This document shows, piece by piece, positions 12,269 through 32,578 of a stretch of DNA of 39,535 nucleotides. Each line of letters opens with the position of its first letter. The first letter of the stretch is position 1. The translations under genes were made by a program, and so were the position numbers. The notes beneath the pieces were generated by a model. That model was not told the origin of the DNA and searched no databases. It worked only from the letters and a program-made list of their open reading frames with translations. Source of the stretch: Bacteroidota bacterium. Its GTDB lineage: Bacteria > Bacteroidota > Ignavibacteria > UBA10030 > SZUA-254. The DNA lies in contig DATDQD010000066.1 in assembly GCA_035292425.1 (NCBI GenBank), positions 1 to 39,535 on the forward strand, read 5' to 3'.

Positions 12269-13612
12269 TCAGGCCGGATTCGTCGTGGAGGGCAGATAGC
12301 TGTGGATCCTCTCTTCAACCTCCTTGAGACCCTCCTTCCGTCCTTCCTCGATTTCCCATATCGAGATCAGCGGGAACAGCTTTGCGAAGACCATGTATCC
12401 AAGGATGAACACCGCGATCCCTCCGGCAAAAAGGGCCCATTCTGTCATCGAGGGGATATAGATCCCCATCGGGACGTGCATTCTCGGATTGGCGAGCGAC
12501 GGGACAACGATGATCAAACGCTCCAGCCACATTCCGATCACCACCGCGATGGAGGCGATTAAAATGCCGGCAATCGTTTTGAACCGTTTAAAACTGAGGA
12601 GTACCATCGGGATGACAAAATTACAGACGACCATTCCCCAGAAAAAGAAGGCAAACGGTCCGGTAAATTTATACATGATGATTTCCATTTCGTGCGGCTC
12701 GTCTCCGAAGACGCCGGTGAGATATTCGGAAAACGTGAAATAAAACCACACGATGGACATGATCAGGAGAAGCATGCTCAGGTACTGCAGATGGATCACC
12801 TTCAGGTACGCCTCGAGGCGGAACGCCTTTCTGAATATGATCATCACGATCAGCAGGGCGGCGATGCCTGAAAATATCGCGCCAACGACGAAATAGGGTC
12901 CGAAGATCGTGCTGTGCCAACCCGGCTGCAGCGTCATCGAGAAAATGTAGGAGATGACCGTATGCACGGATACGGCGATCGGAATGACCATCACCATCAG
13001 CAGGTTGATCGCACGGTTGAGTACGCGCTTCTGATGCTCCGTGCCCGTCCATCCCCACGCCATGAATGTGTACATCCAGGTGAGTTTTCCCCCCTGGTCC
13101 CTCAGGCGCGCGATGTCCGGGATCATCGGAATGTACAGGTAGACCGTGCTGGCTGTGAAGTACGCGGTTATGCTGGTCACGTCCCAGAGAAGGGGAGATT
13201 GCAGACGACCCGATTCGAGGAGGCTGAACATGCGGTCCGGCCTGCCGAGATCCAGGATCGGGTGAAGACCGCCGATCGCCAGGACGATGGCGGTGATGAC
13301 CTCGGCCATCCGCGTGATCGGCCGCCGCCATTCCGCCTTCGAGAGGCGGAGGATCGCCGAAATGAGCGTTCCGGCGTGGCTGATCCCGATGAAGAAAACG
13401 AAGTTGACGATGTAGAAGCCCCAGGTAATCGGTTGTGCCATTCCGGTGACACCCAGGCCGGAACGCAGCTGCGTGACATACATATAGAGGGCCCACACGA
13501 TCACCGCGACCAGGACGGCAAGCGACAGGTAGTAACCCCTGCCGGTGTGATAGATCGGCCGGTAGAGGGCGGCATCCAGATCGTTCTCGTACGGGAGATG
13601 TTTTTCTGTCAT
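12269..13612 (-). CDS. NrfD-family quinone-interacting membrane subunit, ActC/QrcD-like (long, about 10 TM)
   Basis: 447-aa polytopic protein. The block WGFYIVNFVFFIGISHAGTLISAILRLSKAEWRRPITRMAE is typical of the long NrfD/ActC/HybB type. Start overlaps the FeS gene stop by 4 nt. Confidence 0.85.
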   Translation of the reverse strand: MTEKHLPYENDLDAALYRPIYHTGRGYYLSLAVLVAVIVWALYMYVTQLRSGLGVTGMAQPITWGFYIVNFVFFIGISHAGTLISAILRLSKAEWRRPITRMAEVITAIVLAIGGLHPILDLGRPDRMFSLLESGRLQSPLLWDVTSITAYFTASTVYLYIPMIPDIARLRDQGGKLTWMYTFMAWGWTGTEHQKRVLNRAINLLMVMVIPIAVSVHTVISYIFSMTLQPGWHSTIFGPYFVVGAIFSGIAALLIVMIIFRKAFRLEAYLKVIHLQYLSMLLLIMSIVWFYFTFSEYLTGVFGDEPHEMEIIMYKFTGPFAFFFWGMVVCNFVIPMVLLSFKRFKTIAGILIASIAVVIGMWLERLIIVVPSLANPRMHVPMGIYIPSMTEWALFAGGIAVFILGYMVFAKLFPLISIWEIEEGRKEGLKEVEERIHSYLPSTTNPA

Positions 13613-14301
13613 CGTGTCCTCTTCACGAGATAGTACACTTTCGGTTCGACTCCCAGGTCCTCCATGACGCGGGATGCCCGGTAATCCCCCGACATCTTAT
13701 AGACGCTGCTCCCCTTGTCTTCGATGTCGCCGAAATAGATCGCGTCGGCGGGACAAATTTCGGCGCACGCCGGCACATATTCCCCGTCATTGATCGGCCT
13801 GTCCTCCTCATCCGCAGTTTCCTTCACTTTCATCAGACGGTGAGAGCAGAACGTGCACTTTTCCACCACCCCCACCATGCGCCTGGATACATCCGGGTTG
13901 AAGCAGGTCGACGCGCCTTCGATCCACGCGGGATCCTTCCAGTTGAATACCTTCGCCGTGAACGGGCATGCGACCATGCAATATCGGCAGCCGATGCATC
14001 GGTGGTACACCTGCGCAACGAGCCCCTCCTCGTTGCGGTAGGTCGCCCCCACGGGGCAGACCCGCGTGCAGGGGGGGTTATCGCAATGGAAACAGGGTTT
14101 CGGCATCCGTTTTATTTCAATGCCCGGATAGTCGCCCCCGTACTCGGTGATCATATCCATCCAGTGCATCACTCTCCCCTGCAGGGCTTCGTCCGGCTCG
14201 ACAATCGGCACGTTGTTCTCCATTTTGCACGCCGCCATGCACGCCCCGCACCCGGTGCACCTGTCCAGATCAATCGCCATTGCCCATTTAGCCATTCGCA
14301 T
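13609..14301 (-). CDS. 4x[Fe-S] ferredoxin subunit (PsrB/DmsB/ActB2-like)
   Basis: Four Cys groups: CTGCGACMAAC, CFHCDNPPC..C, CIGCRYCMVAC, CTFCSHR...CAEIC. Confidence 0.9.
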   Translation of the reverse strand: MRMAKWAMAIDLDRCTGCGACMAACKMENNVPIVEPDEALQGRVMHWMDMITEYGGDYPGIEIKRMPKPCFHCDNPPCTRVCPVGATYRNEEGLVAQVYHRCIGCRYCMVACPFTAKVFNWKDPAWIEGASTCFNPDVSRRMVGVVEKCTFCSHRLMKVKETADEEDRPINDGEYVPACAEICPADAIYFGDIEDKGSSVYKMSGDYRASRVMEDLGVEPKVYYLVKRTR

Positions 14302-14311: not shown

Positions 14312-16768
14312 TTACGACGTACGGGATATTCTCACTTTGGTCGCCTCGAGGGCGGGCTTCCCGCTCACGAGATCGTGGAGATTTCTCATGATGGTGTTCG
14401 GATTTACGCCGTGGCCTCGCGCGTAACGACCGTACGAGGTGTGTCCCATGCCGAAGGGAATCGCAACGACGTCGGGCATGATCCCGGGGGTGATTTTCGC
14501 TTTCACGCGGACATTCCCGATCGAGGACTCCACCCATACCCAGTCATCGTTCGAGACGCCCGCGGCCGCGGCCGTCTCCGGGTGAATCTCCGCCCACGAC
14601 TCCCACGGCGAATGCACCGAGTATCCGAACAGTTCCTGCATCAGCGGAAGCGCGGCGCCCGCTCCGTCGCGGTTCGGCATCACCTGGAAGGTCACGAGGT
14701 ACATCGGACGGTCGCCCTCGTACGGAACGGCTTCATGGTGCGGCATCATTGCATTGTCGCCGCGCGCGGAGATGTTCAGCCGGCTGAGCACGGATTCGAG
14801 ATTGCGCGACGAACCGGTCTCGTCCAGCTTCAAGAGGAGCCGGTTGAATTCCGAGTTCAGCCTCTGTGAAAAAAATTCGAACTTTCCCGAGGGCGTCGTG
14901 AAAAGCTCGTCGAGGTTCTTCTTCTTCCGCGCCGGATTCCACCAGCCGCCATTGAGAAGGAGCTGCTCCCAGAATTCGTCAAAAGTGGCATAGCGCCCGG
15001 TCTGCCATCCCCGCCGCTGCAGGAATTCAATCCAGGGCTGTTTTTGTCCCTTCGCGACGACCGCGCCCTGCCCGGACCTGAAGAGCCCCTCCGCCGCGTA
15101 ACGCACCTCTTCCCGGTAATCGGTAAAGGCCGCCGCGCTTTTCACCGTTCCGCCTACCCGGCGTGCCAGTTCGGTGAACACATCCCCGGTCCCCCGCGTA
15201 TCGTGCAACGGCTCCACGACCGGCTGCTGTATGCCGAAATGGGAAAATCCCACGGTCGGGACATCGGAGATTTCACCCCAGCTTTCCAGGAACGTATGCT
15301 CGGGCAATATCAGGTGGGCGTACTCGCTCGTTTCGTTGATGATTGAATCGAAGCTCACGACGAGCGGTATCTTCTTCAGCGCGCCGGCGAAATCCAGGTG
15401 GTTCAGCGTCTGGAAGAGGGGATTCCCGTGGTATAAGAAGAGAACGCTCAACGGATACGGACTATCCGCGAGGATATTTTTAGCGAAGCTCTCGATCGAA
15501 AAGTCCGAGAGCGGGAACGGGACATCCCGCGAGCTCGTGAGGGGCTCCGACCGGCTCCCTGCCGCGGCGACCGCGTCGACCTCCACGTCGGGAAGGGGCC
15601 TGACGGGGGCCTGGTCGGTGAAGAAGACCCCTCCCTCTGCCTCGTAATTTCCCAGGAGCGCGTTGAGACTCTGAACCGCCATCTGGGCGAACGTGCCGTT
15701 GGTGTTGTCGACGGCCCCTCCGTCCCCCAGCACGAGGGATTTGGGCGTATTGCCGAGCAGGCGTCCGAGCTCGAGGATTGCAGCGGTCGGCACTCCTGTG
15801 ATTTCGGACACCTTCTCCGGATAGTAGTTCCCGAGCACGATACTCCGGAATCCGAGATGCCTGCTCCCCGAACGGTCCGCCCAGTCCTCGAACCCGAACG
15901 TGCTGCCTCCGACGAATCGGGCGTCATACAGTTCCTCCCTGATGAGGACATAGGCGATCCCGAGCGCCAGCGCCCCGTATGTTCCCGGGCGTATCGGCAC
16001 CCACTTGTCGGCGTTGGCGGCCGTCAGGCTCATCCGCGATTCCACCTGGATGTATTGCGTCTGCAGCTCACGGTGATGACTGTAGAGTTTCGTGTAATAG
16101 ACGGGCGAATAACCCTCCCCGAGAAAATTCGACCCGAAGCTTACAATCAGCTTCGCGTTCAGAAAGTCATAGGCCGGTATCCTGGAATGACCGTGCAGCA
16201 GGGAGTGGGGGACCATGTCGTTCTGCGAGGGGGAAAACCGGAAGTAGTTCGGGGACCCGTACGCTTTCATGAAGCGGGCGATGTGCTGTTCCATCAGTCC
16301 CCGTTCGTCGTATCCGAGCACCGCGACCTGTCGGGATTTTTGTCCGCCGCGAAGTTCAGTGAGTCTTTCGGCGATGATCTTCAAGGCCTCGTCCCAGGTG
16401 ATGGGTTCCCACCTCCCGCTCCCGGGGTTCGCCGTGCGCTTCATCGGGCCCTTCAACCGGTCCGGGTGATATAACATGTGAAGCGCGTTGAGCCCCAACG
16501 AACACATCCCGCCCAGGTTGACGGGATAATGAGGGTTGCCTCTGATGGAGACCGGGAGGCCGTCAACCATCCGGACGCTGATACCGCATCCGCCCGGACA
16601 GAGCCCGCAGATGGTGTTTTTCCAGGTTTCAATCCCCGGTCCGGTCCTGACACGGTGGATCAGCCGGTCCGGTATTTCCAGGACCTCGTCCATCGCGCAG
16701 CCACCCACGGCAAGCGAGACCGAGGTCCCCCCCACCAGTTTGATAAAATCCCGCCGTTTAATTTCCAT
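14312..16768 (-). CDS. Tat-exported molybdopterin-oxidoreductase-family (MopB) subunit
   Basis: 818 aa. Twin-arginine leader MEIKRRDFIKLVGG. N-terminal FS0-type motif CGLCPGGCG...x27..C (CX2CX3C...C). No in-frame TGA. Confidence 0.9.
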   Translation of the reverse strand: MEIKRRDFIKLVGGTSVSLAVGGCAMDEVLEIPDRLIHRVRTGPGIETWKNTICGLCPGGCGISVRMVDGLPVSIRGNPHYPVNLGGMCSLGLNALHMLYHPDRLKGPMKRTANPGSGRWEPITWDEALKIIAERLTELRGGQKSRQVAVLGYDERGLMEQHIARFMKAYGSPNYFRFSPSQNDMVPHSLLHGHSRIPAYDFLNAKLIVSFGSNFLGEGYSPVYYTKLYSHHRELQTQYIQVESRMSLTAANADKWVPIRPGTYGALALGIAYVLIREELYDARFVGGSTFGFEDWADRSGSRHLGFRSIVLGNYYPEKVSEITGVPTAAILELGRLLGNTPKSLVLGDGGAVDNTNGTFAQMAVQSLNALLGNYEAEGGVFFTDQAPVRPLPDVEVDAVAAAGSRSEPLTSSRDVPFPLSDFSIESFAKNILADSPYPLSVLFLYHGNPLFQTLNHLDFAGALKKIPLVVSFDSIINETSEYAHLILPEHTFLESWGEISDVPTVGFSHFGIQQPVVEPLHDTRGTGDVFTELARRVGGTVKSAAAFTDYREEVRYAAEGLFRSGQGAVVAKGQKQPWIEFLQRRGWQTGRYATFDEFWEQLLLNGGWWNPARKKKNLDELFTTPSGKFEFFSQRLNSEFNRLLLKLDETGSSRNLESVLSRLNISARGDNAMMPHHEAVPYEGDRPMYLVTFQVMPNRDGAGAALPLMQELFGYSVHSPWESWAEIHPETAAAAGVSNDDWVWVESSIGNVRVKAKITPGIMPDVVAIPFGMGHTSYGRYARGHGVNPNTIMRNLHDLVSGKPALEATKVRISRTS

Positions 16769-16782: not shown

Positions 16783-17310
16783 TCAACGATGACAGGAGAG
16801 ACAGTCATTCGATACATTTTTGCTCCTATGGCAATCCATGCAGTTTTCCATCGTCACCTCCAGGAACGCCGAAGTCACCGGCGCCGTCATGGCGCTGACC
16901 ATTCCGTGACACGCGCTGCATTCCAGCTCGCCGCCGACGACATGCCTGCGGTGGGAGAAATAGACATGGTCGGGGACCTGATAGATGTTCACCCAGGGAA
17001 TTTCCTTCTCTTCGGACACGTATTTCAACAGGGCGAGCTCCTCCTGGGATTCGGACAGCGGGGCAGTTTCATGACAGGTACGGCATATTTCGATCGATGG
17101 AAGTGTTGCCGAGGCCATGGTCTCGACGTAGAGATGACACTCCTGGCACTTGAGACCGGCATTTTCGATATGGACCCGGTGGTTGTAAGCGATCGGCTGC
17201 TTCACATCGTCGTCCGAGACAAACGCACACGATACCATAAACACCGGCATCACGAACAGGATGATGTTCACGGTGAAACGGGCAACCCGCGGCCAGTTCA
17301 ACATCGGCAT
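16783..17310 (-). CDS. Membrane-anchored pentaheme cytochrome c (ActA-like)
   Basis: 5 CXXCH motifs (CQECH, CRTCH, CSACH, CMDCH, CLSCH) after an N-terminal TM (FTVNIILFVMPVFMV). Start taken at ATG 17310. The longer ORF to 17388 overlaps the upstream gene. Confidence 0.85.
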   Translation of the reverse strand: MPMLNWPRVARFTVNIILFVMPVFMVSCAFVSDDDVKQPIAYNHRVHIENAGLKCQECHLYVETMASATLPSIEICRTCHETAPLSESQEELALLKYVSEEKEIPWVNIYQVPDHVYFSHRRHVVGGELECSACHGMVSAMTAPVTSAFLEVTMENCMDCHRSKNVSNDCLSCHR

Positions 17311-17338: not shown

Positions 17339-18502
17339 TTACGGTTTTGTGGATTCCCTGAGATACGAATATAAATTCCGCATCTCATCGCTGGTGAGCG
17401 CCGGCCACTTCTTGTTCTGGGTGATCAGCATATCCTCCATACCGGCAGCGTGATTCCACATCAGCTGGATCATCCGGACCGGTGAATTGAAATGGGTGAT
17501 ACTCATGATGTCGGGACCCCTGCCGGATCCGCCCTTTTCGTGACAGTTGGAACAACCTTTTGACTGGAAGACGGCCCCCCCCTTTTTCCCGTCACCGGGC
17601 TTGTCCTCGAAGTCAAGGAAATACAGATACGCAATCATGTCCGCCATCTCATTCCCTTCGAACTTCGGCCATTCGATCGATTCGTCCTTCATTTTTTGCG
17701 CCATCATCGGACCGTGATTCCACATCAGGCTGGCCGTTTCGGTCACGCTTTTTTTCAACCGGATCTGGGAGAGGTTGGGGGCGAGTATTTTCTTGGCTTC
17801 CCCTTCGGCCACGTGGCATTGATTGCATCCCTTCGACTCGAAGACTTCCTTCCCGTTCTTGGGGTCACCCGGGCTTATTCCCGCCTCGACGCCGGTCAGC
17901 GCCGCCTGCCGGATGTAGACCGTGATGTCGGTGATATCCTGACCAGTCAACATGGGAAAATTCAAACCGGCTTTTTCAATCTGCTCTCTCATCCCGGGAA
18001 CGTGGTTCCACATGGATTGCACAATATAGAGGGGAGAGGGGGTGGTCTTGATGGAGTCGAAGGCGTCGCCCACCGATCCGCCGCCGCCCCCGATCGAATG
18101 ACAGGTTGTGCATCCTTTGCTCTCGAGGACTTTTTTTCCCTTTGCCACCCCGCCCGGTTCGCCGAGATACCGCAGATAGTAGAGGAATCCGAACAGGTCG
18201 AGCATTTCCTTCTCGCTGAATTGCGGCCTCTCCATGCGCATCTGCCTGAACTTGCGGTTCATCTGGGGGGTATGGTTCCAGATGATCGTCGCCAGTTCCA
18301 GCACGCTGCCGAAATAGAGGTCTGAACTCAGGGAGGGACCGGCCGTGCCTCCGTATCCGCCGATCGCATGGCATTCAATACAGCCTTTTTCCTCGAAGAC
18401 CATCCTTCCCTGGAGGGGATTTTGGGGAAGGTCAATTTGCTGGGCGTACAGCGTACCCGCAAAAATAAAAACACAGAGCATCCAGCAGCGATGGAGTGCC
18501 AT
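17339..18502 (-). CDS. Periplasmic cytochrome c made of four tandem class-I monoheme domains
   Basis: Signal peptide. Four repeats of G-C-x2-C-H ... WNH-x-P/A-x-M: CIECH/WNHTPQM, CTTCH/WNHVPGM, CNQCH/WNHGPMM, CSNCH/WNHAAGM. Confidence 0.85.
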   Translation of the reverse strand: MALHRCWMLCVFIFAGTLYAQQIDLPQNPLQGRMVFEEKGCIECHAIGGYGGTAGPSLSSDLYFGSVLELATIIWNHTPQMNRKFRQMRMERPQFSEKEMLDLFGFLYYLRYLGEPGGVAKGKKVLESKGCTTCHSIGGGGGSVGDAFDSIKTTPSPLYIVQSMWNHVPGMREQIEKAGLNFPMLTGQDITDITVYIRQAALTGVEAGISPGDPKNGKEVFESKGCNQCHVAEGEAKKILAPNLSQIRLKKSVTETASLMWNHGPMMAQKMKDESIEWPKFEGNEMADMIAYLYFLDFEDKPGDGKKGGAVFQSKGCSNCHEKGGSGRGPDIMSITHFNSPVRMIQLMWNHAAGMEDMLITQNKKWPALTSDEMRNLYSYLRESTKP

Positions 18503-18524: not shown

Positions 18525-18758
18525 TTAATTCTTCTTTTTCCCTTTTTGTAAACCCACGAAAACGTACGTCAGGACGGATGCCAACGTCGTGAATATCGGT
18601 ATGGCTACGATACTGATGCCGACGGACGCGCCCGGCATGTCTCGGAGTTCAATGGATAATGAAATGAGATTGATGATCCAGAGGGTAATGACGATCACGA
18701 AGAGCCATATCAGCGAGACACTGACGATCTGCGCTATGAAGATGATTTTATTCAGCAT
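18525..18758 (-). CDS. Small two-TM membrane protein (hypothetical)
   Basis: 77 aa, two hydrophobic helices, Lys-rich tail. Visibly more AT-rich than its neighbours. First ORF after a 247-nt gap. Confidence 0.45.
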   Translation of the reverse strand: MLNKIIFIAQIVSVSLIWLFVIVITLWIINLISLSIELRDMPGASVGISIVAIPIFTTLASVLTYVFVGLQKGKKKN

Positions 18759-19005
18759 ATGACTCTCTCGATCATCCTTTGTCGTCGTGGGGCTGTCTTG
18801 AGAGGAACTGAAATCTGAGCTTCAAAATTGATACCAACTTTCTTCATCCCGGGGAGCTCCCCCGGAGTTCAGAATACGGCCCTTATCGGATATTTTATCG
18901 CTCCGCGATGTTGGTGGAAGGCGACATTGTCAATTTTGAAATCCGTCCTCGGGTAAATTCTCATATTTAAGAATCAACCTGCCGGTGGCCCCCCGGGGGT
19001 TCCCC

Positions 19006-24865: not shown

Positions 24866-26340
24866 TCACTGCAGTTCATCTCCATCCAGGCATTCCCGAT
24901 GTCGATCGGGTGCCGGTAGGAAATCCCCCCGAGGGAAATCCTGACGGTGTCGGCTACAAATTGCTGCGCCAGGATTGTGTGGCACAGGTTGCAATCCTTG
25001 GAGAGGACTTTCCCGTCTTCACTCCGATGTTTGCCGTCGTGACACCGGAAACACCCCGGGTAATAGAGGTGACCGATGTTATCGGTGAACCTTTTCCAGT
25101 CTGTCTTCATCTCGGGGAAATAATTGCGGGCGTAGAGCAACTGGACCTGCCCGACGGCACTGTCGAGCGCGGATTTCATCGTGGTCAAAACATCGGGATA
25201 ATGATTACGGTAATAATTCTCCATCGTGATCCGGATCGTGTCCAGCCCGCCCTGTTTCGTGGAATACTCCCCCTCCAGGGCCTCCACCGATATGGCCTTT
25301 ACCGACGGAAGGGCAGGATCGATCCAGCCCAGCGACATGATGTGATTCACCGAACGCGCCGGCGGATGGTAGATGTGCGTCGGTCGGTTATGGCAGTCGA
25401 TGCAGTCCATGCGGCGCGTGAATGCCGCCTCGAGCGAATCTTCCGGGACCTCGATTTCCGCGCTGCGGTAAATCACCTCGGCTCCGTCCGGTGTGCGCGA
25501 CCGGATCCACGGGATGATCTGGCGTTCCCGGTCAAGGGCCCTGTACGTGACCTCGTGCGCGATGTTCATGTGCCAGTGGATTCCGGAGGTCGGGCCCGCC
25601 TCGATATTTCCACCCCCGATTTTCATCAGCAGGTTGATGCTCCACCGGGAATTCCGCTCATCGGCGAGATAGTACGTGTTCACCTTCTGCTTCTCGCTGA
25701 AAAAATGCCTGGGCCAGTGACACTGCTCGCACGTTTCCTGCGCCGGCCGCAGGTTCTCGATGGGGGTGGGAATGGGCGTGGGATATTTATTGAATGCCAC
25801 CGCGTACATCTGGTAGCTTCCCGAGATTTTGGAACGGACGAACCAGTCGGCTCCCGACCCGATGTGGCACTTTACGCAGCCCACCTTCGCGTGCGGCGAG
25901 AACTGGTACGCGGTGTATTCCGGTTCCATCACATTGTGGCATGTTTCACCGCAGAACTGGTCTGAATCCGTATATTCATACGCCTTAAAACTGCCGAACG
26001 CCGAGAAGAGCAGGAGCAGGACGCCGCCGATCGACGTAAACACGAATGCCGCGCGGTGACGGGGATTGTTCAGGTCTATCTTGGGGAGGTGGAGGCCGTG
26101 CGGCTTGCCGATCCGCTCGCGGTAGTACTCCCGCACCAAACCAAAGATCATCACGGCGATCCCGAGGAGCAGGAACACCGGCAGGATGACAAACGTGATG
26201 ATGCCCATGTAGGGCTTTTGCTGCTCGGCCATCGTCTCTATCAGGATCAGGAAGAGGATCAGCCCGAAGCTGACGCCGGCGATCGCCGTGCCGAGAAGAG
26301 TGATGAGATTATAGAATGAAGGGGGAAATATGCGCTTCAT
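24847..26340 (-). CDS. ImcH-like inner-membrane multiheme cytochrome (3 TM plus NapC/NirT-like 7-heme domain)
   Basis: 497 aa. Three N-terminal TM helices. Six CXXCH motifs (CVKCH, CEQCH, CIDCH, CFRCH, CNLCH, CSDCH) plus one CX3CH (CGETCH). This matches what I recall of Geobacter ImcH (3 TM, 7 hemes, about 500 aa). Confidence 0.72.
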   Translation of the reverse strand: MKRIFPPSFYNLITLLGTAIAGVSFGLILFLILIETMAEQQKPYMGIITFVILPVFLLLGIAVMIFGLVREYYRERIGKPHGLHLPKIDLNNPRHRAAFVFTSIGGVLLLLFSAFGSFKAYEYTDSDQFCGETCHNVMEPEYTAYQFSPHAKVGCVKCHIGSGADWFVRSKISGSYQMYAVAFNKYPTPIPTPIENLRPAQETCEQCHWPRHFFSEKQKVNTYYLADERNSRWSINLLMKIGGGNIEAGPTSGIHWHMNIAHEVTYRALDRERQIIPWIRSRTPDGAEVIYRSAEIEVPEDSLEAAFTRRMDCIDCHNRPTHIYHPPARSVNHIMSLGWIDPALPSVKAISVEALEGEYSTKQGGLDTIRITMENYYRNHYPDVLTTMKSALDSAVGQVQLLYARNYFPEMKTDWKRFTDNIGHLYYPGCFRCHDGKHRSEDGKVLSKDCNLCHTILAQQFVADTVRISLGGISYRHPIDIGNAWMEMNCSDCHYND

Positions 26341-26456: not shown

Positions 26457-27425
26457 TCATCGATAGGCAAAGAGCATCGCGTAAATGATCCAGAGCACCA
26501 CGCTGAAGCCGATGGTCAGCGCCGTCCAGCCGAACGCCTTGACGGCCCGTGTGACGATCGGCTGGTAGGGTTCGACGAGGCGGGATTCGAGCCGGCCGCT
26601 TTTGACGAGTTCCTCGTATTCCGCCGGCTTGTCCAGCGCGAATTCGTCAACGTCCATACGCCCCGTGAAGATGACGATGTCCATCGGGAATTTTTCCGGG
26701 CGGAGATGGGTGTTGAAGAAGTGCACGGTGAAGATAAACCCCACGGCGAGCAGGGCCTCGTCGCTGTGGATGATGGTGGCCACGTTGAGCAGCGAGCCGG
26801 GCATGAAGTTGGTGAAGAGTTCCGGGAACCAGAGCATCAGGCCGGTCGAACCGATGACCGCCACGCCCCAGAAGACGGCGAAATAATCGAACTTCTCCCA
26901 GTAGGTCCACCGGCCGAACCGCGGGCGCGGTCCCCTGCCGACGAACCACTTCACAGAGCCGATGAAATCGGAAAGGTCCTTCCCGTTGAACATCATCGAG
27001 TCGGGGCTGAAGATCATCGACTTCCACGTCCGTCCATCCCGCTTCTTCATCCTCAGGACGTCGATGACATGGATGAAGAAAACGGCGAACATGATGACCG
27101 CGGCGAACCTGTGGAGGGATCCCGCGCTCTCGAACCCGCCGAGGAGGTGCGAGAGCAGAACCGCCCAGCCGGTGTATGAAAACTTGAGCGTCAGGCCGGT
27201 GAGCGCGAGCGTCAGAAAGCTGATGATGAGGAAAATGTGCAGTGCCCTGTTGAGCCTGCTGAAACGGAGGAATTGACGTTCTCCCGCGGGAGAGCTTTCC
27301 TCCGCAGGAAAGTACGATGACCCTGCCTCCGTGGCCGTCGGCGTGGAAGGGGACGGGGATGGGGACGGCGCCGGTGCGGAACCGCCGGAGGAGTCCTTCT
27401 GCGCACTGTCGTTCCGGTTATCCAT
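26457..27425 (-). CDS. Diheme cytochrome b, HydC/FdnI/PhsC-like (CbcB-like)
   Basis: ATG 27425 (MDNRND...) overlaps the upstream stop by 8 nt. Four to five TM helices with conserved His (RALHIF, SLHRFAAVIMFAVFFIH, IIHSDEA, TVHFF). Clearly paralogous to the C-terminal domain of 29433..31751. Confidence 0.8.
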   Translation of the reverse strand: MDNRNDSAQKDSSGGSAPAPSPSPSPSTPTATEAGSSYFPAEESSPAGERQFLRFSRLNRALHIFLIISFLTLALTGLTLKFSYTGWAVLLSHLLGGFESAGSLHRFAAVIMFAVFFIHVIDVLRMKKRDGRTWKSMIFSPDSMMFNGKDLSDFIGSVKWFVGRGPRPRFGRWTYWEKFDYFAVFWGVAVIGSTGLMLWFPELFTNFMPGSLLNVATIIHSDEALLAVGFIFTVHFFNTHLRPEKFPMDIVIFTGRMDVDEFALDKPAEYEELVKSGRLESRLVEPYQPIVTRAVKAFGWTALTIGFSVVLWIIYAMLFAYR

Positions 27426-29436
27426 CCTGTCCGTCTTTCGGGCCGCCCGCACTCCCGGGTTCATCGTCCGCGGCGCCCGGCGGCTGCGCGCCGTTCTTCT
27501 CTTCCAGATGTTTCGCTTTCAGCAATCGACGGTACTGGAACGCCCGGGGGAGCCAGAGGAGCGTGTGGACGCCGCCGAGAAGGAACGTTCCGATCAGGAG
27601 CGACGTCATCCCCCAGAACGTCCAGAAGAGGAAGGGATATTTTTCCGGGTCGTGGTGCGTCGCGTGGGTCAGGTACCCGGCGAACCGCCTCGACGCCCCT
27701 TCGTGGCACTTCTGGCAGGTGCCGACGACGTTGTCGTGGCTCAGGTGCGAGCGGGGATCGGCCACGGGGAGGATGTCGTGGGCGCCGTGGCAGTCGTAGC
27801 ACTTCGCCGTCTTCGTGTAGCCGAGCTGGGACACCTTCCCGTGGTAGGTATCGAAGTAGGTCTCGGCGATCTTCTCGTGGCACCGCCCGCACTGCTGCAT
27901 GATTTCAAGCTTGAAGCCCTGGGAGTCCGCCCGCCTGATCTTGTGCGCGGTATGGCAGTCGTCGCAGACCGGGAGATCTTTTCCGGACTTCGAGACGAGT
28001 TTCGAATGGATGCTCTTTTGGAACTGCTCTTCGATGCCGTGGTGACACTTGCCGCACGTCTTCGGGAGGTTCCGGGGATTGACGCTGGAGAGGCTGTCGC
28101 TCCGCGGGAGCACGCTGTGCGGCGTGTGGCAGTTGCTGCACATCGCGGTCACGGTGAGCCCGCTCTTCATCAGTCCCTTGCCGTGAATGCTCTCGGTGTA
28201 CAGCTCGATGATCTGGTGCTCGATCCCCGTGTAGCGGACGGCGGCTTTCTGGCCCTCCCGGTGGCACCGTGCGCAAAGGAGGGGAACGTTTGTCGGGAAC
28301 GTCGGCGACGAAGGATCCAGTTTCCCCTTCACGCCGTGCTGCCCGTGGCACTCCTTGCAGGCCGGACCGTTCGGGTCGTTGTTGGTGACGAGTTTTCCGT
28401 GGAGACTGACGGTAAATTGCTGGCCCACCTCGGCATGGCACGACGAGCAATCCACTTTTTTTGTGATCGCATCGCAGGGACGCACATTCGATGCGTTCAC
28501 ATCCGAGTGGCACTGGCTGCACGATATCTTCTGGTGCCTCGACACACCGAGCTCCTGTGCCCGCACGAAGAGCGGCCTTCCGTCCCGGGAGGACTTCAGA
28601 TCCGGTCTCTCGTGGCAGGTGAGGCAGTCCCTGTCGGCCATTCCCTGCGTGTAATAAACTTTCCGGACCTTGTGCGGCTGGTGGCAGTCCACGCATGCCG
28701 GGAGGACGTGCTGTTCCTTCTCCCACAATTCGCCCTTGATCACCTTGCGGTGGACCGTTTCGATCTCGGCGTGGCACTTCGCGCAGGTCGAGGCGATGTT
28801 CTTCCGGGCGATCGATGACGCCGGGTTTGTGTGGGGCAGGATCGAGTGCCCGGTATGGCACGAGGCGCAGTTCGGCGCGACGATGAGCCCCTTTCTCAGG
28901 AGCCCCTCGCCGTGGATGCTCTCCGAAAAATTCTCCAGAATGTTGTCCTGGTGGATCACCCGCTGCCGCTGGACCGGGGATCCCTCCTGGTGACACTTTC
29001 CGCAGAGGAACGGGATTTTCAGAGGCGAAATGGCGGAATTACGATCCGATTTCGGCAGGATATTGTGTGTGCCGTGGCAGTCGTTGCAGCGCGGGGCGAG
29101 CCTGTCCCCCCGTGCCGCGGCCTGGCCATGGAGGGACTTCGATTCTTCGGCCTGTTCGGCCGAATGGCAGCCGCCGCAGTCCACCGGCGCGACGTCCTCC
29201 TCGTGGGGGAACTGCTTCCCGGCCAGGCCGGCGTGGCAGGAGACGCAGCCGTTCGACCCGTGGACCGAGCCTGCGTGGGTGTTCGCGTTGACGTACACCG
29301 AAATCTTTTTCCCGCCGCGTCTCCCCTCGAGCGATTTATCCTCGTGGCAGGAGAGGCAGTCGGCGTCCTCCTGCGCGAACGCGGGAATCGCAAGGAGAAG
29401 CAGGAGCGCCGGCGTTATAAAAATCCGCCGGATCAT
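27418..29436 (-). CDS. 19-heme cytochrome c with signal peptide and C-terminal TM anchor (CbcA-like, expanded)
   Basis: 672 aa, 19 CXXCH motifs counted by hand. C-terminal TM FLFWTFWGMTSLLIGTFLLGGV. ATGA overlap with the upstream gene stop. Confidence 0.85.
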   Translation of the reverse strand: MIRRIFITPALLLLLAIPAFAQEDADCLSCHEDKSLEGRRGGKKISVYVNANTHAGSVHGSNGCVSCHAGLAGKQFPHEEDVAPVDCGGCHSAEQAEESKSLHGQAAARGDRLAPRCNDCHGTHNILPKSDRNSAISPLKIPFLCGKCHQEGSPVQRQRVIHQDNILENFSESIHGEGLLRKGLIVAPNCASCHTGHSILPHTNPASSIARKNIASTCAKCHAEIETVHRKVIKGELWEKEQHVLPACVDCHQPHKVRKVYYTQGMADRDCLTCHERPDLKSSRDGRPLFVRAQELGVSRHQKISCSQCHSDVNASNVRPCDAITKKVDCSSCHAEVGQQFTVSLHGKLVTNNDPNGPACKECHGQHGVKGKLDPSSPTFPTNVPLLCARCHREGQKAAVRYTGIEHQIIELYTESIHGKGLMKSGLTVTAMCSNCHTPHSVLPRSDSLSSVNPRNLPKTCGKCHHGIEEQFQKSIHSKLVSKSGKDLPVCDDCHTAHKIRRADSQGFKLEIMQQCGRCHEKIAETYFDTYHGKVSQLGYTKTAKCYDCHGAHDILPVADPRSHLSHDNVVGTCQKCHEGASRRFAGYLTHATHHDPEKYPFLFWTFWGMTSLLIGTFLLGGVHTLLWLPRAFQYRRLLKAKHLEEKNGAQPPGAADDEPGSAGGPKDGQDG

Positions 29437-31751
29437 TTTTTCTCCCCTTCGCGGCCTTCGGGCTTTGCCCCGGTGGCGGGTTTTCCGCCAGGCGTTCCCG
29501 TTCCGGGTTTGCCCTCCAGCTTCTCCCCCATCATTTCATCCGCGGGAAGTTCTTTCCTGATCCGCCCCGCGACGATCCGCCGCAGTTCGAGCGGATGGTC
29601 TTCCTCCATCTCCTCCTCCGTCAGCGTGCCTTTCCAGAACGCCACGTTGAGGGGGTAGACGTCGGGGTTGAAGATCACAAAATAGAAGTGCCACACGATG
29701 ACGGCCAGCGTGGCCAGCCACGCCTCGTAGTAGTGGATGGTGCGCGCCACGTCGTATCCCAGCTTCGTGAGCAGGCCGATGAAGGTATTGTCGAACCACA
29801 TGATGAGCCCGGTGACGCCCATGACGGAGGTCCCCCAGAGGAGGGCCCAGTATTCCGCCTTCTCGATGTAGCAGAACCGGTCGAAGAGCGGGCGGGTGCC
29901 GGACAATCCGAGGTTGTATTTCATCATCGCGATGGCGTCCTTCGCGTCCTGGCGGCGCGGGAGCATGTCGAAAATCAGCCGGCGCCCGGGGACCGTGAAG
30001 AATACGTACCAGACGTGGTAGAAGCTCGCGGCCAGCATGACCACCCCGGCGACGCGGTGGATCAGGCTCCTGGTGTCGAAGACGGAATCGCTCAGCGCCC
30101 GTATCCACTGCACCCACCAGACCTCGGGGAACCTGAGCATGAACCCGGTAACGACCAGCGTCATGAAGCTCAGCAGGAGAGCGGCATGCTGGACGCGCTC
30201 GTTCTTGCTCATCCTCGGGTAGAGTTCGTGGCTCGTATAGGGATGGGGGATGAGCCCGCGGCGGATCATCAGCTTCCGGCGGGACTTCTTTACGAAATCG
30301 AGCGCATTGTGCGCCAGCATCCCGCCGATGGTGAGCACGATCAGGAGGATGTAGGCCGTCGCGATCCAGTAGAGCATCGGCTCCTCCGTCCGCGACGACT
30401 CGTCCACGTGGACCCGGCCGATGGTGAAGCGCTCGTTGGCCCCGGGGTGGCAGCTTCCACAGGTCCCGGCAAGGTTGGCCTTGCTGATCATGGATGTGGA
30501 ATCGGCCGACGACTTGATATTATGCGTCCCGTGGCAGCTGGCGCAGTTGGCGACTTCGACCGAACCGCCGCGGATGGCAAGGCCGTGGTAACTGTCGGAG
30601 AAGGTCTTGAACCGGTCGCTCTCGATGCCGTACTTGGTCGAGAGGGCGACGGAACTGTGGCAGGGCGAGCAGACCTGCGCCGAGAGGTTCTGCCTGGCGA
30701 CGGGCGATTTCGGGTCGGTGTGCTTGAGGATCGTGTGCTCACCGTGGCAGTCCGTGCAGGTCGGCGCGTCGACCACGCCCTTCTGCACCGCGACTCCGTG
30801 CGCGCTCTGGTTGTACACGTCCGCGATCTCGCCGTGGCACTTCGAGCAGGTCCCGGCGATATTCAGCTTGCTGACCTTCGCCGCCGGATCGTATCCCTTC
30901 GCCATCTGGTGGCTGCCGTGGCAGTCGACGCAGTTCGGCGCCCTGTCATTCCCGTTCATGAGGGCGCGGCCGTGGACGCTCTGTTCGTAGGCCGCGATGA
31001 AACCCGCCGACGGCGATGTCCGCGCCCGGACGTCGGGATTGTCCAGGTGGCAGGTAAGGCAGAGCCGTTCCTGCGCGAGTTTCATACCGACGCCGTTATC
31101 CGGGTGGCTCGCCGGAGTGATGTCGTGGCCGTGGCAGCCGAGGCATTCCGGCGCGCCCTTCACGCCGGCGGCGAACGCCCCGCCGTGCGCGGAGGCCGCG
31201 AACTGTTCCACCACGTCGCCGTGGCACTGGCCGCAGCCCTCGGATATGTTCGCGCGGTTGAACGGCGACTCTTTCTCTTTCGGCGAGATGACATTATGGG
31301 TCCCGTGGCAGTCCTTGCACGACACCGAAGGCTCCTCTTTCCGGGCGATGGCCTGTGCCAGCTGGGGATGGAACCTGTGCTTCAGCTCGGCGCCCTTGTG
31401 GCAGGTGAGGCACTCCACCGGCCGGATGTTTTTCCTGTGAGGCATTTCCGCGGGATCGAAACCGGGGTGGCAGGCGGTGCAGACGAGCTTCTTATGCGGC
31501 GAACGGCCGAGCACGGCGGCGTCGACGAAGAGCGGCACCTGCGCCCCGTTTCTTTCGGTTGTGAGCGACGTGTCCGAGTGGCAGGCCAGGCAGTCGTCCC
31601 TCGACTGCGCCCTCGCCGGTCCGCTCAGGATCCAGAACGCGGCGAAGAGCAATGCGGCCGCCGCGAAGACGACCGTGATCAGGAGGCGGACGCAGAGGCG
31701 CCGGAAGGCGTCTCCCGGTGTTGGAGTGTCCGTGTTCACCGGGGCATTCAT
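29433..31751 (-). CDS. Fusion: 13-heme cytochrome c domain plus C-terminal diheme cytochrome b membrane domain (CbcL-like architecture)
   Basis: ATG 31751 (MNAPVNTD...) forms an ATGA overlap with the upstream stop. 13 CXXCH motifs, then 5 TM with conserved His (RVQHAAL, LIHRVAGVVMLAASFYH, TIHYYEA, VWHFY). Confidence 0.85.
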   Translation of the reverse strand: MNAPVNTDTPTPGDAFRRLCVRLLITVVFAAAALLFAAFWILSGPARAQSRDDCLACHSDTSLTTERNGAQVPLFVDAAVLGRSPHKKLVCTACHPGFDPAEMPHRKNIRPVECLTCHKGAELKHRFHPQLAQAIARKEEPSVSCKDCHGTHNVISPKEKESPFNRANISEGCGQCHGDVVEQFAASAHGGAFAAGVKGAPECLGCHGHDITPASHPDNGVGMKLAQERLCLTCHLDNPDVRARTSPSAGFIAAYEQSVHGRALMNGNDRAPNCVDCHGSHQMAKGYDPAAKVSKLNIAGTCSKCHGEIADVYNQSAHGVAVQKGVVDAPTCTDCHGEHTILKHTDPKSPVARQNLSAQVCSPCHSSVALSTKYGIESDRFKTFSDSYHGLAIRGGSVEVANCASCHGTHNIKSSADSTSMISKANLAGTCGSCHPGANERFTIGRVHVDESSRTEEPMLYWIATAYILLIVLTIGGMLAHNALDFVKKSRRKLMIRRGLIPHPYTSHELYPRMSKNERVQHAALLLSFMTLVVTGFMLRFPEVWWVQWIRALSDSVFDTRSLIHRVAGVVMLAASFYHVWYVFFTVPGRRLIFDMLPRRQDAKDAIAMMKYNLGLSGTRPLFDRFCYIEKAEYWALLWGTSVMGVTGLIMWFDNTFIGLLTKLGYDVARTIHYYEAWLATLAVIVWHFYFVIFNPDVYPLNVAFWKGTLTEEEMEEDHPLELRRIVAGRIRKELPADEMMGEKLEGKPGTGTPGGKPATGAKPEGREGEKK

Positions 31752-32578
31752 CTTACGTGGTGCACTTCCTGTATCGCCTCGATGACGAGGGGGAAATACC
31801 GGTCGAGGGCGCACTCGACGTCGTCGCGCATGTCACAGTGCCCGTCCGGCGACTGGTGCTGGCAGACGGAGCAGACCTTCTCCCTCAGTCTGGCGACATA
31901 CGCGTCGAGGTTGTCGCCCGGGGTGGTGAGAACGATATCGATGATCTCCGGCAGGTAGCGGTTGATGGCGCAGGAGTCGTATGTGGACGCGACGCAGAGT
32001 CCCGATGGGGTGCGATCGATGCACTTCATGCAGACCCTCTGCCGTATTTCCTCGAGGTAGCGTTCTTCGTAAGGCATGATGGTCCTCTCTTCTGTGTTCC
32101 ATGGTAGCGGATCGGTGAATTTCCTGGCGGGCGACCCGGGCTTGACGATCATGACCGGAACCGCGGCGTTTCTGACGATCTGGTCGGCAATCCCCCCGGC
32201 GCGGACAGGATCCCCCGGCGAATCGGCCCGGACAGGGAGCACGATGACGTCCACGCCTTCCTCGCGCGCGAACCTCAGGATTTCCCGGGCCGGGACCCCG
32301 TTCCGGACGATGCAGGCGAATCGTGATTGCGGCCTGATTTTTTTCAGGAAGAAATCCTCCATCGCGCGATACTTCTTCCGCATCTCCGCGTCCCCCTCCG
32401 CCGATTCGCCCGGTCCCGGGGCGATCCGGTCGGGCGTCCGGGTGATGACGTGGATCAGGTAGATCTGGGATTTCTTCTCCCTGGAAAGCGTCAATGCGGC
32501 TTCGACGGCACAGAGCGACGCGTCCGTTAAATCCACGGGGACGAGTATCCTGTTCATATTTGTCAGTTTTTTCGACAT
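31748..32578 (-). CDS. Universal stress protein (UspA) domain fused to a duplicated 4-Cys C-terminal module
   Basis: Start at ATG 32578 (MSKKLTNMNRILVPVDLTDAS... is USP-like). C-terminus has two CX2CX8CX7C repeats, each followed by A-[IL]-[ND]-RY-[LF]-P. The track ORF extension to 32830 crosses an AT-rich intergenic region and the crp stop. Confidence 0.75.
   Translation of the reverse strand: MSKKLTNMNRILVPVDLTDASLCAVEAALTLSREKKSQIYLIHVITRTPDRIAPGPGESAEGDAEMRKKYRAMEDFFLKKIRPQSRFACIVRNGVPAREILRFAREEGVDVIVLPVRADSPGDPVRAGGIADQIVRNAAVPVMIVKPGSPARKFTDPLPWNTEERTIMPYEERYLEEIRQRVCMKCIDRTPSGLCVASTYDSCAINRYLPEIIDIVLTTPGDNLDAYVARLREKVCSVCQHQSPDGHCDMRDDVECALDRYFPLVIEAIQEVHHVR

Follow-up and report, generated by a model that had tools for sequence, protein, structure and literature searches.

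The inner-membrane systems ImcH, CbcL and CbcBA of Geobacter have been shown genetically to have potential-matched roles, and their genes, like those of Cbc3-6, are scattered on the chromosome (GSU0274, 0068-70, 0590-94, 1648-50, 2930-35 and 3259; Joshi et al.), half of these systems being without an assigned role. We describe here a stretch of DNA of 39,535 nucleotides (contig DATDQD010000066.1 of assembly GCA_035292425.1, from a Bacteroidota bacterium of the Ignavibacteria; hereafter the window, by which we mean the whole stretch) in which homologues or analogues of most of the Geobacter types are packed into one co-directional island, and this island recurs, with gain and loss of modules, in many Ignavibacteria of soils, peat, fens and sediments.

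All components of the island belong to described families, and homologues of ImcH and CbcL as well as porin-cytochrome clusters have already been noted in Ignavibacteria. In the searchable full-text literature, outside which lie subscription-only papers, we found no description of the tandem array, of its pair of one fused and one split CbcL-type protein, or of the linkage of the array to a multihaem Rieske/cytochrome b complex, to a hybrid of alternative complex III (ACIII) and Qrc and, in relatives, to an outer-membrane conduit. An earlier note on this DNA, made from the sequence alone, had called the locus one not known to be described; no published description of it was found, but the arrangement itself recurs in relatives. 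The comparisons below draw on a scan of one genome per species, which gave 80 related loci with 10-kb flanks, mostly from Ignavibacteriota, onto which the proteins of the window were mapped by tblastn.

The six modules and their described counterparts

Positions 12269-32578 carry, by our check of open reading frames (ORFs), 17 intact genes in one direction on the minus strand, and an independent gene caller, the one used for the public collection, recovered the same genes on the source contig, an Ignavibacteriota metagenome contig of 46 kb (ENA ERZ27254861 k141_4422813) of which the window makes up positions 2-39536. The earlier note had counted nineteen genes and had raised the possibility of frameshifts, of which there are none in the named ORFs. 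The co-directional run continues upstream to position 36778 through genes for a Crp/Fnr regulator, YdjM, a Fer2-adenylate cyclase, YceI and MarR, giving 22 genes in all. The genes of the array itself, from its upstream end and with the product predicted for each, are:

31748..32578, minus strand: universal stress protein (Usp) with a C-terminal cysteine-repeat domain; its stop overlaps the start of the fusion gene (ATGA)
29433..31751, minus strand: module 1, CbcL-family fusion of a signal anchor, 13 c-haems and a HydC/FdnI-type dihaem b domain
27418..29436, minus strand: module 2a, 19-haem periplasmic cytochrome c with a histidine-bearing C-terminal transmembrane (TM) helix (GGVH)
26457..27425, start possibly 27464, minus strand: module 2b, dihaem cytochrome b, a split-off CbcL-type b domain
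24847..26340, minus strand: module 3, ImcH-type inner-membrane 7-haem quinol dehydrogenase of 497 aa, related to NapC/NirT/NrfH
24071..24811, minus strand: module 4a, membrane-anchored octahaem cytochrome c of 246 aa with eight CXXCH and an N-terminal TM helix
23326..24069, minus strand: module 4b, ferredoxin-like subunit with four [4Fe-4S] clusters (NrfC/DsrO/TtrB-like), exported by the twin-arginine (Tat) route
22103..23329, minus strand: module 4c, NrfD-family quinone-interacting membrane subunit
21578..22036, minus strand: module 5a, Rieske [2Fe-2S] subunit
20502..21581, minus strand: module 5b, cytochrome b, a fusion of b6-like (N-terminal) and subunit IV-like (C-terminal) parts
19006..20505, minus strand: module 5c, 11-haem cytochrome c with a C-terminal anchor, in the place of c1/f
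18525..18758, minus strand: module 6a, 77-aa protein with two TM helices, possibly an ActD-like small subunit
17339..18502, minus strand: module 6b, periplasmic cytochrome of four class I (monohaem) c domains
16783..17310, minus strand: module 6c, membrane-anchored pentahaem cytochrome c, ActA/QrcA-like
14312..16768, minus strand: module 6d, Tat-exported MopB-like subunit with the FS0 [4Fe-4S] motif kept and no molybdenum (Mo) ligand
13609..14301, minus strand: module 6e, iron-sulfur subunit, QrcC/ActB-C-terminal-like, with no signal peptide of its own
12269..13612, minus strand: module 6f, ActC-type NrfD-family quinol-binding membrane subunit

The haem motifs per ORF number 13 (module 1), 19 (2a), 8 (4a), 11 (5c), 4 (6b) and 5 (6c), with six CXXCH and one CX3CH in module 3, and the total of 67 in the earlier note (13+19+7+8+11+4+5) stands, as 66 CXXCH and one atypical CX3CH. 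Six-frame translation of the whole window placed all 66 CXXCH in the interval from 16 to 32 kb, every one of them on the minus strand, with none elsewhere in it, and this clustering is far beyond chance. Start and stop overlap as ATGA at six junctions (31751/48, 29436/33, 23329/26, 21581/78, 20505/02 and 13612/09) and by 8 nt at a seventh (27425/18), which makes translational coupling inside the modules plausible. The eighth overlap claimed earlier, 24865/24847, rests on an alternative TTG start of module 4a at 24865, with which that gene would run into the ImcH gene; the gene caller's ATG at 24811 leaves a gap of 35 nt.

Across the array, Pfam and NCBIfam searches returned Usp, Ni_hydr_CYTB (twice), Cytochrom_NNT/NrfH, Fer4_11 (twice), NrfD (twice), Rieske, Cytochrome_B with Cytochrom_B_C, class I cytochrome c (four times), a QrcA-like match and Molybdopterin. 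Together with the PDB searches and the intact ORFs, these matches bear out the reading of the array as six quinone-linked membrane modules, every one of which is assigned to a quinone-interacting family. No ccm gene, outer-membrane-conduit cytochrome c, recognisable porin or recognised terminal reductase was found in the window, at the ends of which lie a few ORFs without a family match, and in this, too, the earlier note was right.

Which of the Geobacter systems, then, does the array contain? Judged on sequence criteria, module 3 is a member of the ImcH family, which Zhong and Shi (2018, PMC6295460) define by three N-terminal helices, a CX3CH motif beside the membrane domain and typical CX2CH motifs, six of them in the Geobacter ImcH group and five to nine in other homologues. 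The protein of 497 aa has three helices by hydropathy (16-34, 47-65 and 97-115), all N-terminal, a CX3CH (CGETCH, 130-135) right after the third and six CXXCH (at 155, 204, 313, 430, 450 and 490); for GSU3259, Table S3 of the same authors gives 507 aa, helices at 13-35, 45-67 and 100-122 and motifs at 132, 156, 205, 311, 428, 448 and 486. Its first part is NrfH/NapC-like (Cytochrom_NNT, E 1e-7; NrfH TIGR03153, E 5e-15; PDB match to 2j7a_C). Pimenta et al. draw attention to H137, K173 and Q179 of Geobacter ImcH. The residues matched to these by numbering, at an offset of -2 (H135, K171 and Q177), do not vary among nine diverse homologues that were aligned and that bear six taxonomic labels, and neither do the haem motifs. 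It is this agreement in motifs, helices and the Lys/Gln pair that led us to file module 3 under ImcH. The likeness spans two phyla and was read from published motif tables rather than from an alignment; the Geobacter-group proteins are 31-49% identical to other ImcH homologues (Zhong and Shi, PMC6295460). A further difference is that ImcH, which G. sulfurreducens (GSU3259) requires for extracellular acceptors of high potential, is a lone gene in Geobacter, whereas the gene in the window sits within a multi-module array. Among the matches listed, homologues are 48-83% identical and come mostly from metagenome-assembled genomes (MAGs) of Ignavibacteria; the best of them (70-83% identity), like the best MopB homologues, are from Ignavibacteria, Ignavibacteriales or Bacteroidota MAGs.

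Proteins of the CbcL/MtrH/MtoC family have 416-1034 aa, 3-23 haem motifs and a FdnI/HydC-like b domain, usually with six helices and conserved histidines; they are found in metal reducers and metal oxidisers alike, and no sequence feature tells the direction. Modules 1 and 2 both have the N-terminal multi-CXXCH domain (13 and 19 motifs) and the C-terminal HydC/FdnI-like dihaem b domain with histidines in its helices. Module 1, in which the two domains form one protein, fits the family in its domain content and lies inside the ranges given for haem number and length: its b domain matches Ni_hydr_CYTB (Pfam, E 4e-15) and the FdnI and Ni/Fe-hydrogenase b subunits (NCBIfam), with four helices above the hydropathy threshold and a fifth read by eye. 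In module 2 the domains are encoded by two genes that overlap by the 8 nt noted above, one for the 19-haem cytochrome, with a TM helix at residues 602-620 and then GGVH, the other for a cytochrome b (Ni_hydr_CYTB, E 1e-10; FdnI in NCBIfam) that again has four helices above the threshold and one more read by eye.

The earlier note had seen look-alikes of ImcH, CbcL and CbcBA in the array, of which the first two hold, as module 3 and the fusion, and the third does not. Module 2a and the haem domain of module 1 share 29% identity (E 7e-53), module 2b and the b domain of module 1 share 33% (E 4e-29), and in both modules a GGxxH helix follows the haem domain. All 19 haem positions of module 2a coincide, at a constant offset of +28/29, with those of OGU58019.1, a fused Ignavibacteria protein of 952 aa that Zhong and Shi (PMC6295460) list as a CbcL/MtrH/MtoC homologue with six helices, and the TM spacing of module 2b resembles that of GSU0274 and OGU58019.1 in the published tables. 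Geobacter CbcL and CbcB, on the other hand, share no sequence homology, and CbcB has four helices (Joshi et al.). The paralogy, the OGU58019.1 match and the absence of such homology in Geobacter lead us to read the array as holding the CbcL family twice together with ImcH, not all three Geobacter systems, with module 2, by these alignments, a split CbcL-type protein and paralogue of module 1 that is CbcBA-like in layout alone. We reject a separate CbcBA orthologue in view of the b-domain identity to module 1, the 19 haems and the OGU58019.1 match.

The resemblance to CbcBA (Cbc5) is thus one of architecture: the gene for a multihaem c subunit, whose C-terminal TM helix gives a histidine, lies immediately upstream of a separate gene for a dihaem b subunit and overlaps it. 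CbcBA combines a seven-haem CbcA with a four-helix b subunit unrelated to CbcL, whereas module 2 has 19 haems and a b subunit with CbcL-like TM spacing, and a sigma-54 regulator of the BccR type is missing from the window. With CbcL (GSU0274) both modules share the N-terminal multihaem domain, the TM helix, the b-type membrane domain with histidines and, from the published tables, the TM spacing; they differ in having 13 and 19 haems rather than 9, in the splitting of one copy into two genes, in the helices of the fusion (four above threshold and a fifth by eye, rather than six) and in being two paralogues in tandem. PDB searches with the fusion, the 19-haem protein, the ImcH-like protein, the octahaem and 11-haem proteins and the first NrfD protein gave weak or generic matches only. 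One chain described as "Cytochrome c" (28pb_A, 278 aa) matches the 19-haem protein with E 2e-9 and the 13-haem fusion weakly, and may be a CbcL/CbcA-type haem domain of solved structure.

Judged by its subunits, module 6 is a relative of ACIII in which ActB is split as in Qrc, with an ActC-type subunit and no ActF. The earlier note had described this last module as ACIII/Qrc-like, and the ActC-type subunit and a MopB subunit without Mo ligand agree with that description. Module 6f matches ActC of ACIII over its full length (6f0k_C, E 1e-70, 242 bits; also 8k9e_C, 6lod_C and 6btm_C) as well as Pfam NrfD, whereas the QrcD profile barely matches it (38 bits, cutoff 570). The pentahaem subunit, with five CXXCH, matches QrcA (NCBIfam, E 2e-29, 103 bits against a cutoff of 180), and the iron-sulfur subunit matches QrcC (NCBIfam, E 1e-82, 277 bits against 400) and Fer4 families in Pfam, but none of the four subunits reaches the curated equivalog score for its place in QrcABCD. 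What module 6 has in common with these complexes is the pentahaem c, the MopB-like subunit without Mo ligand, the iron-sulfur subunit and the ActC-type subunit, in the gene order of Qrc. ACIII differs in its fused MopB-FeS ActB, the parts of which are encoded separately here, and in its second NrfD-like subunit, ActF, there being no second NrfD in module 6; the places of ActD and ActE are held by the 77-aa two-helix protein and the tetra-domain class I cytochrome. Qrc is a cytochrome c3:menaquinone oxidoreductase, and QrcD was earlier reported from Deltaproteobacteria only; module 6 would add Ignavibacteriota to the groups that have complexes of the Qrc/ACIII type with cofactor-less MopB, and its combination of subunits is new.

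The 77-aa protein, for which Pfam gave no match, had been listed earlier as a free-standing item, but in relatives it travels with the genes of module 6: it is 62-79% conserved and accompanies the tetra-domain cytochrome and the ACIII-like genes in six loci (L014, L019, L039, L047, L088 and L089), and a small gene of 90-92 aa without a family match takes its position in L090 and L091. Since these last two loci, at 41-45% identity, keep the pentahaem, MopB, iron-sulfur and NrfD genes together with the small TM protein and the tetra-class-I cytochrome, we place both the small TM protein and the 4-haem cytochrome in module 6. The latter matches Cytochrom_C and Cytochrome_CBB3 (Pfam), each of its four CxxCH motifs is followed by [MI]WNHxxxM, and it is probably the electron exit or entry partner of the complex, an analogue of ActE. 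In L090 (14083-16534) the tetra-class-I gene is followed by one for a protein of 649 aa, which has matches to c554-like, class I c and FixO/cbb3 families, and then by one for a Cytochrome_CBB3 protein, a neighbourhood which hints that an ACIII-like unit can feed an oxygen-reducing branch.

Could the MopB, iron-sulfur and NrfD subunits of module 6 instead be a genuine molybdoenzyme, a terminal reductase of the Psr/Phs/Arr kind that is fed by the neighbouring cytochromes? The best PDB match of module 6d is ArrA, over the full length (E 2e-72), and the next is PsrA; its NCBIfam scores for PhsA (298 bits) and ArrA (280 bits) are close to that for QrcB (302 bits, cutoff 440), and the Tat signal and the FS0 cluster motif are kept. 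All of these scores, however, lie far below the curated cutoffs. In the structure alignments the cysteine that binds Mo in ArrA (SSVCAEAHK) and in PsrA (SVSLCT) stands opposite a gap or an Asn, and ArrA RGRY is replaced by GYDE. When 16 MopB family members (41-100% identity) were aligned with ArrA and PsrA, all were found to share a 3-residue deletion at the ligand site, its flanks varying among them (FSP-SQND, SGQ-LKNN, IPS-HDRD, TDD-WDNR), and the FS0 motif CxxCxxxC...C was invariant. With partners that are QrcA-like, QrcC-like and ActC-like, we consider a molybdoenzyme at this place exceedingly improbable. The more specific identification as an arsenate reductase is ruled out, the ArrA match notwithstanding, by the loss of the active-site motifs and of the ligand. 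Module 6d is probably cofactor-less and QrcB/ActB-N-like, judging from the deleted ligand, and the statement that the window has no terminal reductase stands.

The two remaining modules are a Rieske/cytochrome b complex and an NrfCD-type complex. In module 5 the Rieske subunit (Pfam Rieske and TM_PetC) has CTHLDC at 94 and CACH at 112, and the cytochrome b, of b6/bc1 type, matches Cytochrome_B (E 3e-48), Cytochrom_B_C and b6 in the PDB (E 1e-55) and has the Qo motif PEWY at 281. There is no cytochrome c1/f subunit; the 11-haem cytochrome, with a TM helix at 463-481 by hydropathy, replaces it, as a multihaem c does in other Rieske/b complexes, and comes after Rieske and cytochrome b in 39 of the 80 loci. 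Cbc6/ExtMNOPQS and b6f-like complexes resemble module 5 in both Rieske motifs, the b6-like half, the subunit IV-like part, PEWY and the match to ExtP; they differ from it in that cytochrome b and subunit IV are fused and the c subunit is an anchored 11-haem protein in module 5, and the ExtP score (206 bits) is below its cutoff (290) and behind that of a b6 subfamily profile (228 bits). Module 4 has the NrfCD-type combination of a Tat-exported protein with four [4Fe-4S] clusters, an NrfD protein and a multihaem c. Its ferredoxin-like subunit (Fer4_11, E 8e-25; TtrB, 216 bits; DsrO, 183 bits) carries an RRKF signal, its 16 Cys fall into four cluster motifs, and the NrfD protein of the module (Pfam NrfD, E 1e-40) has nine predicted TM helices. 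The order of anchored multihaem c, iron-sulfur protein and NrfD is that of Cbc4 (CbcSTU) and NrfBCD/DsrJOP, but the octahaem cytochrome of module 4 is not clearly of NapC/NirT type, whereas CbcS is a tetrahaem relative of NapC/NirT. Module 4 is rare, the octahaem/FeS combination being present in 3 of the 80 loci and the FeS/NrfD pair in 4.

The array in related genomes

Looking for the same gene order in other genomes, as the earlier note had proposed, made it clear that the array is not peculiar to the window. The c-b fusion lies beside the ImcH gene in 56 of the 80 loci, the split pair in 31, the Rieske/b/11-haem genes in 39 and the ACIII-like module in 4, and the core order of fusion, split pair, ImcH and Rieske/b/11-haem is found in 17. 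The order seen in the window is repeated in L014 and L047, and L088, a 251-kb contig found through its MopB protein, has it from the split b subunit to the ActC-type gene. Wherever the ACIII-like unit was recovered, with the exception of L090, it adjoins the Rieske/cytochrome b module. KSB1 / Zhuqueibacter genomes have a rearranged core, and one Gemmatimonadota and one Terriglobales genome have both CbcL-type modules beside ImcH. From this distribution we take the array to be a conserved modular island of Ignavibacteriota, not unique to the window, that is built by the gain, loss and exchange of modules.

Two loci deserve separate mention. In bacterium BMS3Abin03 (L089, GCA_002898075.1) there are tandem ImcH paralogues (3118-4611 and 5178-6674), and the ACIII-like genes come directly after the Rieske/b genes. 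Behind them lie the genes for the small TM protein, for the tetra-class-I cytochrome and for a 9-haem protein related to the 11-haem one, and these nine genes are those of the window in permuted order. In L009 (6058-9703), and likewise in L008, three ORFs stand between the split b gene and ImcH that by size and position are putative genes for EtfB, EtfA and an acyl-CoA dehydrogenase, a placement suggesting that the oxidation of fatty acids or amino acids feeds the quinone pool directly at this locus.

The array in 24 of the 80 loci, and in L088, is followed by genes for a c554-like tetrahaem protein, a haem-free protein of 430-440 aa, a 12-haem protein, a lipoprotein multihaem protein, which bears the Geobacter CxxxxCH...CxxCH motif, and a 5-haem protein. 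The haem-free protein has a sub-threshold match to Porin_O_P only, and from their composition and order these genes look like a porin-cytochrome conduit. A CcsA- or CcmF-type cytochrome maturation gene is present in 25 loci. That conduit and maturation genes are joined to the array in many relatives leads us to regard their absence from the window as a feature of this variant and not of the system. Geobacter-like porin-cytochrome (Pcc) clusters have been reported in Ignavibacterium album, Melioribacter roseus and Ignavibacteria MAGs, with no mention of an inner-membrane array. The putative conduit of the relatives, not of the window, is like the Pcc clusters of Geobacter, I. album and M. roseus in combining periplasmic multihaem, porin-sized and lipoprotein cytochrome genes, and unlike them in its linkage to an ImcH/CbcL/Rieske-b array, which published accounts do not mention. 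Control genes vary as well: a sigma-54 response regulator is found in 21 of the 80 loci, mostly upstream of the array and often with a histidine kinase, and the Crp/Fnr and ferredoxin-cyclase neighbourhood of the window is shared by L004 and L005 only.

How might the window variant have arisen? L004 and L005 are its closest relatives (ImcH 79% and the regulator 84-90% identical), and in both the Rieske/b/11-haem genes come directly after ImcH and the array ends there, with neither module 4 nor the ACIII-like module. To judge by ORF lengths and N-terminal sequences, the array end in these loci adjoins apparently the same aldehyde dehydrogenase and menaquinone genes. Given this layout, the window variant looks like a simpler array of the L004/L005 type that received two insertions, module 4 between ImcH and Rieske and the six-gene ACIII-like unit between the 11-haem and aldehyde dehydrogenase genes. 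The GC content at third codon positions (GC3) of the two extra segments is 0.66-0.78 (octahaem, FeS, NrfD and Rieske genes, 0.66-0.68; 77-aa, tetra-class-I and pentahaem genes, 0.67-0.72), compared with 0.80-0.89 in the stretch from MarR to the split b gene and in the menaquinone genes.

Control region and flanking genes

The features outside the array that bear on its possible control and its quinone partner are:

32640..32651, no strand assigned: FNR/CRP-type palindromic box TGATTTTTATCA (minus-strand reading ATGAT-N4-ATCAT), lying 62-73 nt before the Usp start
32827..33537, minus strand: Crp/Fnr-family transcription regulator of 236 aa, the likely regulator of the array
34664-35593, minus strand: [2Fe-2S] plant-type ferredoxin domain fused to a class III adenylate/guanylate cyclase
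2954..10716, no strand assigned: menaquinone cluster of the futalosine pathway by Pfam, with UbiA, UbiX-like, UbiD, radical-SAM/VitK2_biosynth fusion, radical-SAM and second VitK2_biosynth genes

The box lies in the 248-nt gap upstream of the Usp gene and is the sole match to TGAT-N4-ATCA in the window, where 0.59 would be expected over 39.5 kb; L004 and L005 have the same box at the same distance from Usp. Binding of a regulator to this box we infer from its sequence. The candidate is the product of the gene next to Usp, which has Pfam cNMP_binding, HTH_Crp_2 and Crp domains, has Fnr as its best NCBIfam match (105 bits, below cutoff) and stands beside Usp in L004 and L005 also, at 84-90% identity. 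Its HCETC and SICFVP segments resemble what we take to be the surroundings of C20, C23 and C122 in Escherichia coli FNR, with no equivalent of C29. Anaerobic induction through this FNR-like regulator would be a reasonable reading of its sequence and its box; a possible alternative is that cAMP controls the regulator by way of the neighbouring ferredoxin-cyclase. The gene for the latter lies two genes upstream of that for the regulator, the pairing is kept in L004 and L005 (87-90% identity), and the protein could be a redox-sensing cyclic-nucleotide input to the regulator.

The universal stress protein that opens the array (Pfam Usp, E 2e-20) has a C-terminal extension of about 100 aa that contains two CxxC-x7-C-x6/7-C-x3-RY[LF]P repeats and that Pfam does not match. 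In at least 15 of the 80 loci a Usp gene stands ahead of the fusion gene, and the protein may be a metal- or redox-binding accessory factor. None of the four larger gaps has a convincing promoter or terminator site, no intergenic gap contains the Bacteroidota -7 motif (TAnnTTTG), and Rfam and tRNA scans of the window gave no match.

The menaquinone cluster adjoins the array at its other end, which fits a quinone-centred locus, and a functional link between the two is possible. Within it, a plus-strand ORF of 620 aa (6117-7979) fuses a radical SAM part of the MqnC/MqnE type (Radical_SAM and CofH_C) to a VitK2_biosynth part of the MqnA/MqnD type, with a second radical-SAM gene and a separate VitK2_biosynth gene nearby. 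The cluster also holds, on the minus strand, a gene for an AbiEii/DUF6036-type nucleotidyltransferase toxin (9042-9716) and a 71-aa partner ORF (about 9601-9816, minus strand) just downstream of it; L005 has an AbiEii-like gene at the equivalent place. On the other side, the 322-nt region upstream of the MarR gene contains a perfect C8G8 palindrome, CCCCCCCCGGGGGGGG (36925-36940), and a shorter G/C palindrome (about 18990-19005) opens the 247-nt spacer between the 11-haem and 77-aa genes. The ORFs tested in 36916-39535 had no Pfam match, nor is there a CXXCH in any frame of this part; its counterpart in L086, a near-identical contig from another sample, has genes for proteins of 198 and 527 aa with no family on record.

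Possible roles of the island and their significance

We favour, as the probable reading, that the island comprises six parallel menaquinol:periplasmic-cytochrome oxidoreductases that would let electrons leave the quinone pool at exits matched to the potential of the acceptor and would feed a multihaem network. Each module would oxidise menaquinol at a site in the membrane or facing the periplasm and would pass the electrons to multihaem cytochromes on the periplasmic side, and several such gates, with different cofactors and different coupling, could match the exit to the acceptor. From the periplasmic cytochromes the route would continue to an outer-membrane porin-cytochrome conduit, which in many relatives would be the one directly downstream of the array and which in the organism of the window would lie elsewhere or be absent. 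Anaerobic induction would be exerted by the adjacent FNR-like regulator at the conserved box before the first operon. The direction of electron flow, a division of labour by potential, the regulation and the link to extracellular electron transfer are the parts of this account that we infer; gene content, family assignments, paralogy, the missing Mo ligand, synteny and the conserved box are its observed footing.

Several points weigh against this account. Genes for an outer-membrane conduit, for cytochrome maturation or for a recognised terminal reductase are missing from the window, and in the relatives the porin label is putative, being drawn from a sub-threshold Porin_O_P match and from context. 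Roles are read from sequence for all proteins of the array, and membership in the Geobacter families was judged through published motif tables rather than by direct alignment. Scans for sigma-70 promoters and intrinsic terminators over 12-37.5 kb gave counts near the shuffled expectation. The tetra-class-I cytochrome, which is probably His/Met-ligated and of higher potential, and the ActC-type subunit may mean that module 6 serves the respiration of oxygen or nitrogen oxides and not electron transfer to the outside of the cell. Finally, since two of the modules look like later insertions of lower GC3, their location together need not mean that they function together.

This last point leads to the question of whether the locus is a functional unit at all or a hot spot for the insertion of respiratory cassettes, the modules of which serve separate chains: the ACIII-like unit with its class I cytochrome for microaerobic oxygen or nitrogen-oxide respiration, for example, the Rieske/b module for another soluble acceptor and the CbcL and ImcH modules for extracellular ones. 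That L004 and L005 do without the octahaem/FeS/NrfD and ACIII-like modules, that the extra segments have the lower GC3 given above and that module content differs widely among the 80 loci would all be expected of such a hot spot, and two further facts point the same way, in that the distant ACIII-like homologue in L090 stands beside FixO/cbb3-type cytochrome genes and M. roseus uses a canonical ACIII in aerobic respiration. An accidental assembly accords less well, however, with the presence of the same modules in the same order in the independent species of L014, L047 and L088, with the ACIII-like unit adjoining Rieske/b in every recovered locus but L090, and with genes that are all co-directional and have short or overlapping junctions, and we consider separate chains rather unlikely, if a serious rival.

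The flow of electrons might also be the reverse, the island mainly reducing menaquinone with periplasmic or extracellular donors (Fe(II), reduced humics, or H2/formate via cytochromes), as Qrc does in sulfate reducers and MtoC-type CbcL homologues in iron oxidisers. The occurrence of the CbcL/MtrH/MtoC family in reducers and oxidisers, with a direction that cannot be read from sequence, is compatible with this, as is the activity of Qrc as a cytochrome c3:menaquinone oxidoreductase, for QrcA, QrcB and QrcC are the best NCBIfam matches of three subunits of module 6. Yet the membrane subunit of that module is of the ActC and not the QrcD type (242 against 38 bits), ImcH has so far been tied to quinol oxidation only (Zhong and Shi, PMC6295460), the Ignavibacteria in culture are organotrophs with Fe(III), arsenate, nitrite or oxygen as electron acceptors, and an FNR-type box fits induction for anaerobic respiration. 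Net flow into the quinone pool therefore seems to us improbable, although less so than the molybdoenzyme considered above, and menaquinol oxidation through parallel exits remains the reading that we prefer.

A wider proposal, which we put forward tentatively and with more doubt than confidence, is that Ignavibacteriota possess a cassette-like electron-exit island leading from the quinone pool to the cell surface, with gates that are swapped between lineages and used according to potential. In its fullest form this would be one co-directional cluster of at least roughly 30 kb (its upstream end in L088 was not recovered) that unites up to six quinol gates, a porin-cytochrome conduit and maturation genes, and that in the window and its closest relatives would lie beside the menaquinone genes. 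Among its gates would be the new pair of split and fused CbcL-type proteins, ImcH, the multihaem Rieske/b complex and the new ACIII/Qrc hybrid, exchanged by insertion and recombination and placed under FNR-type or sigma-54 control.

As a compact marker, the island can serve to predict extracellular or branched anaerobic respiration in a phylum that is abundant but poorly cultured. Genomes with or without each of its modules amount to a natural "deletion series", by which metatranscriptomes could link modules to habitats and acceptors, and the array is a single clonable locus for heterologous tests of how quinol gates share their work. If the wider proposal were true, the island would represent an independent, non-Geobacter route to potential-matched extracellular respiration that is common in soils, peat and sediments.

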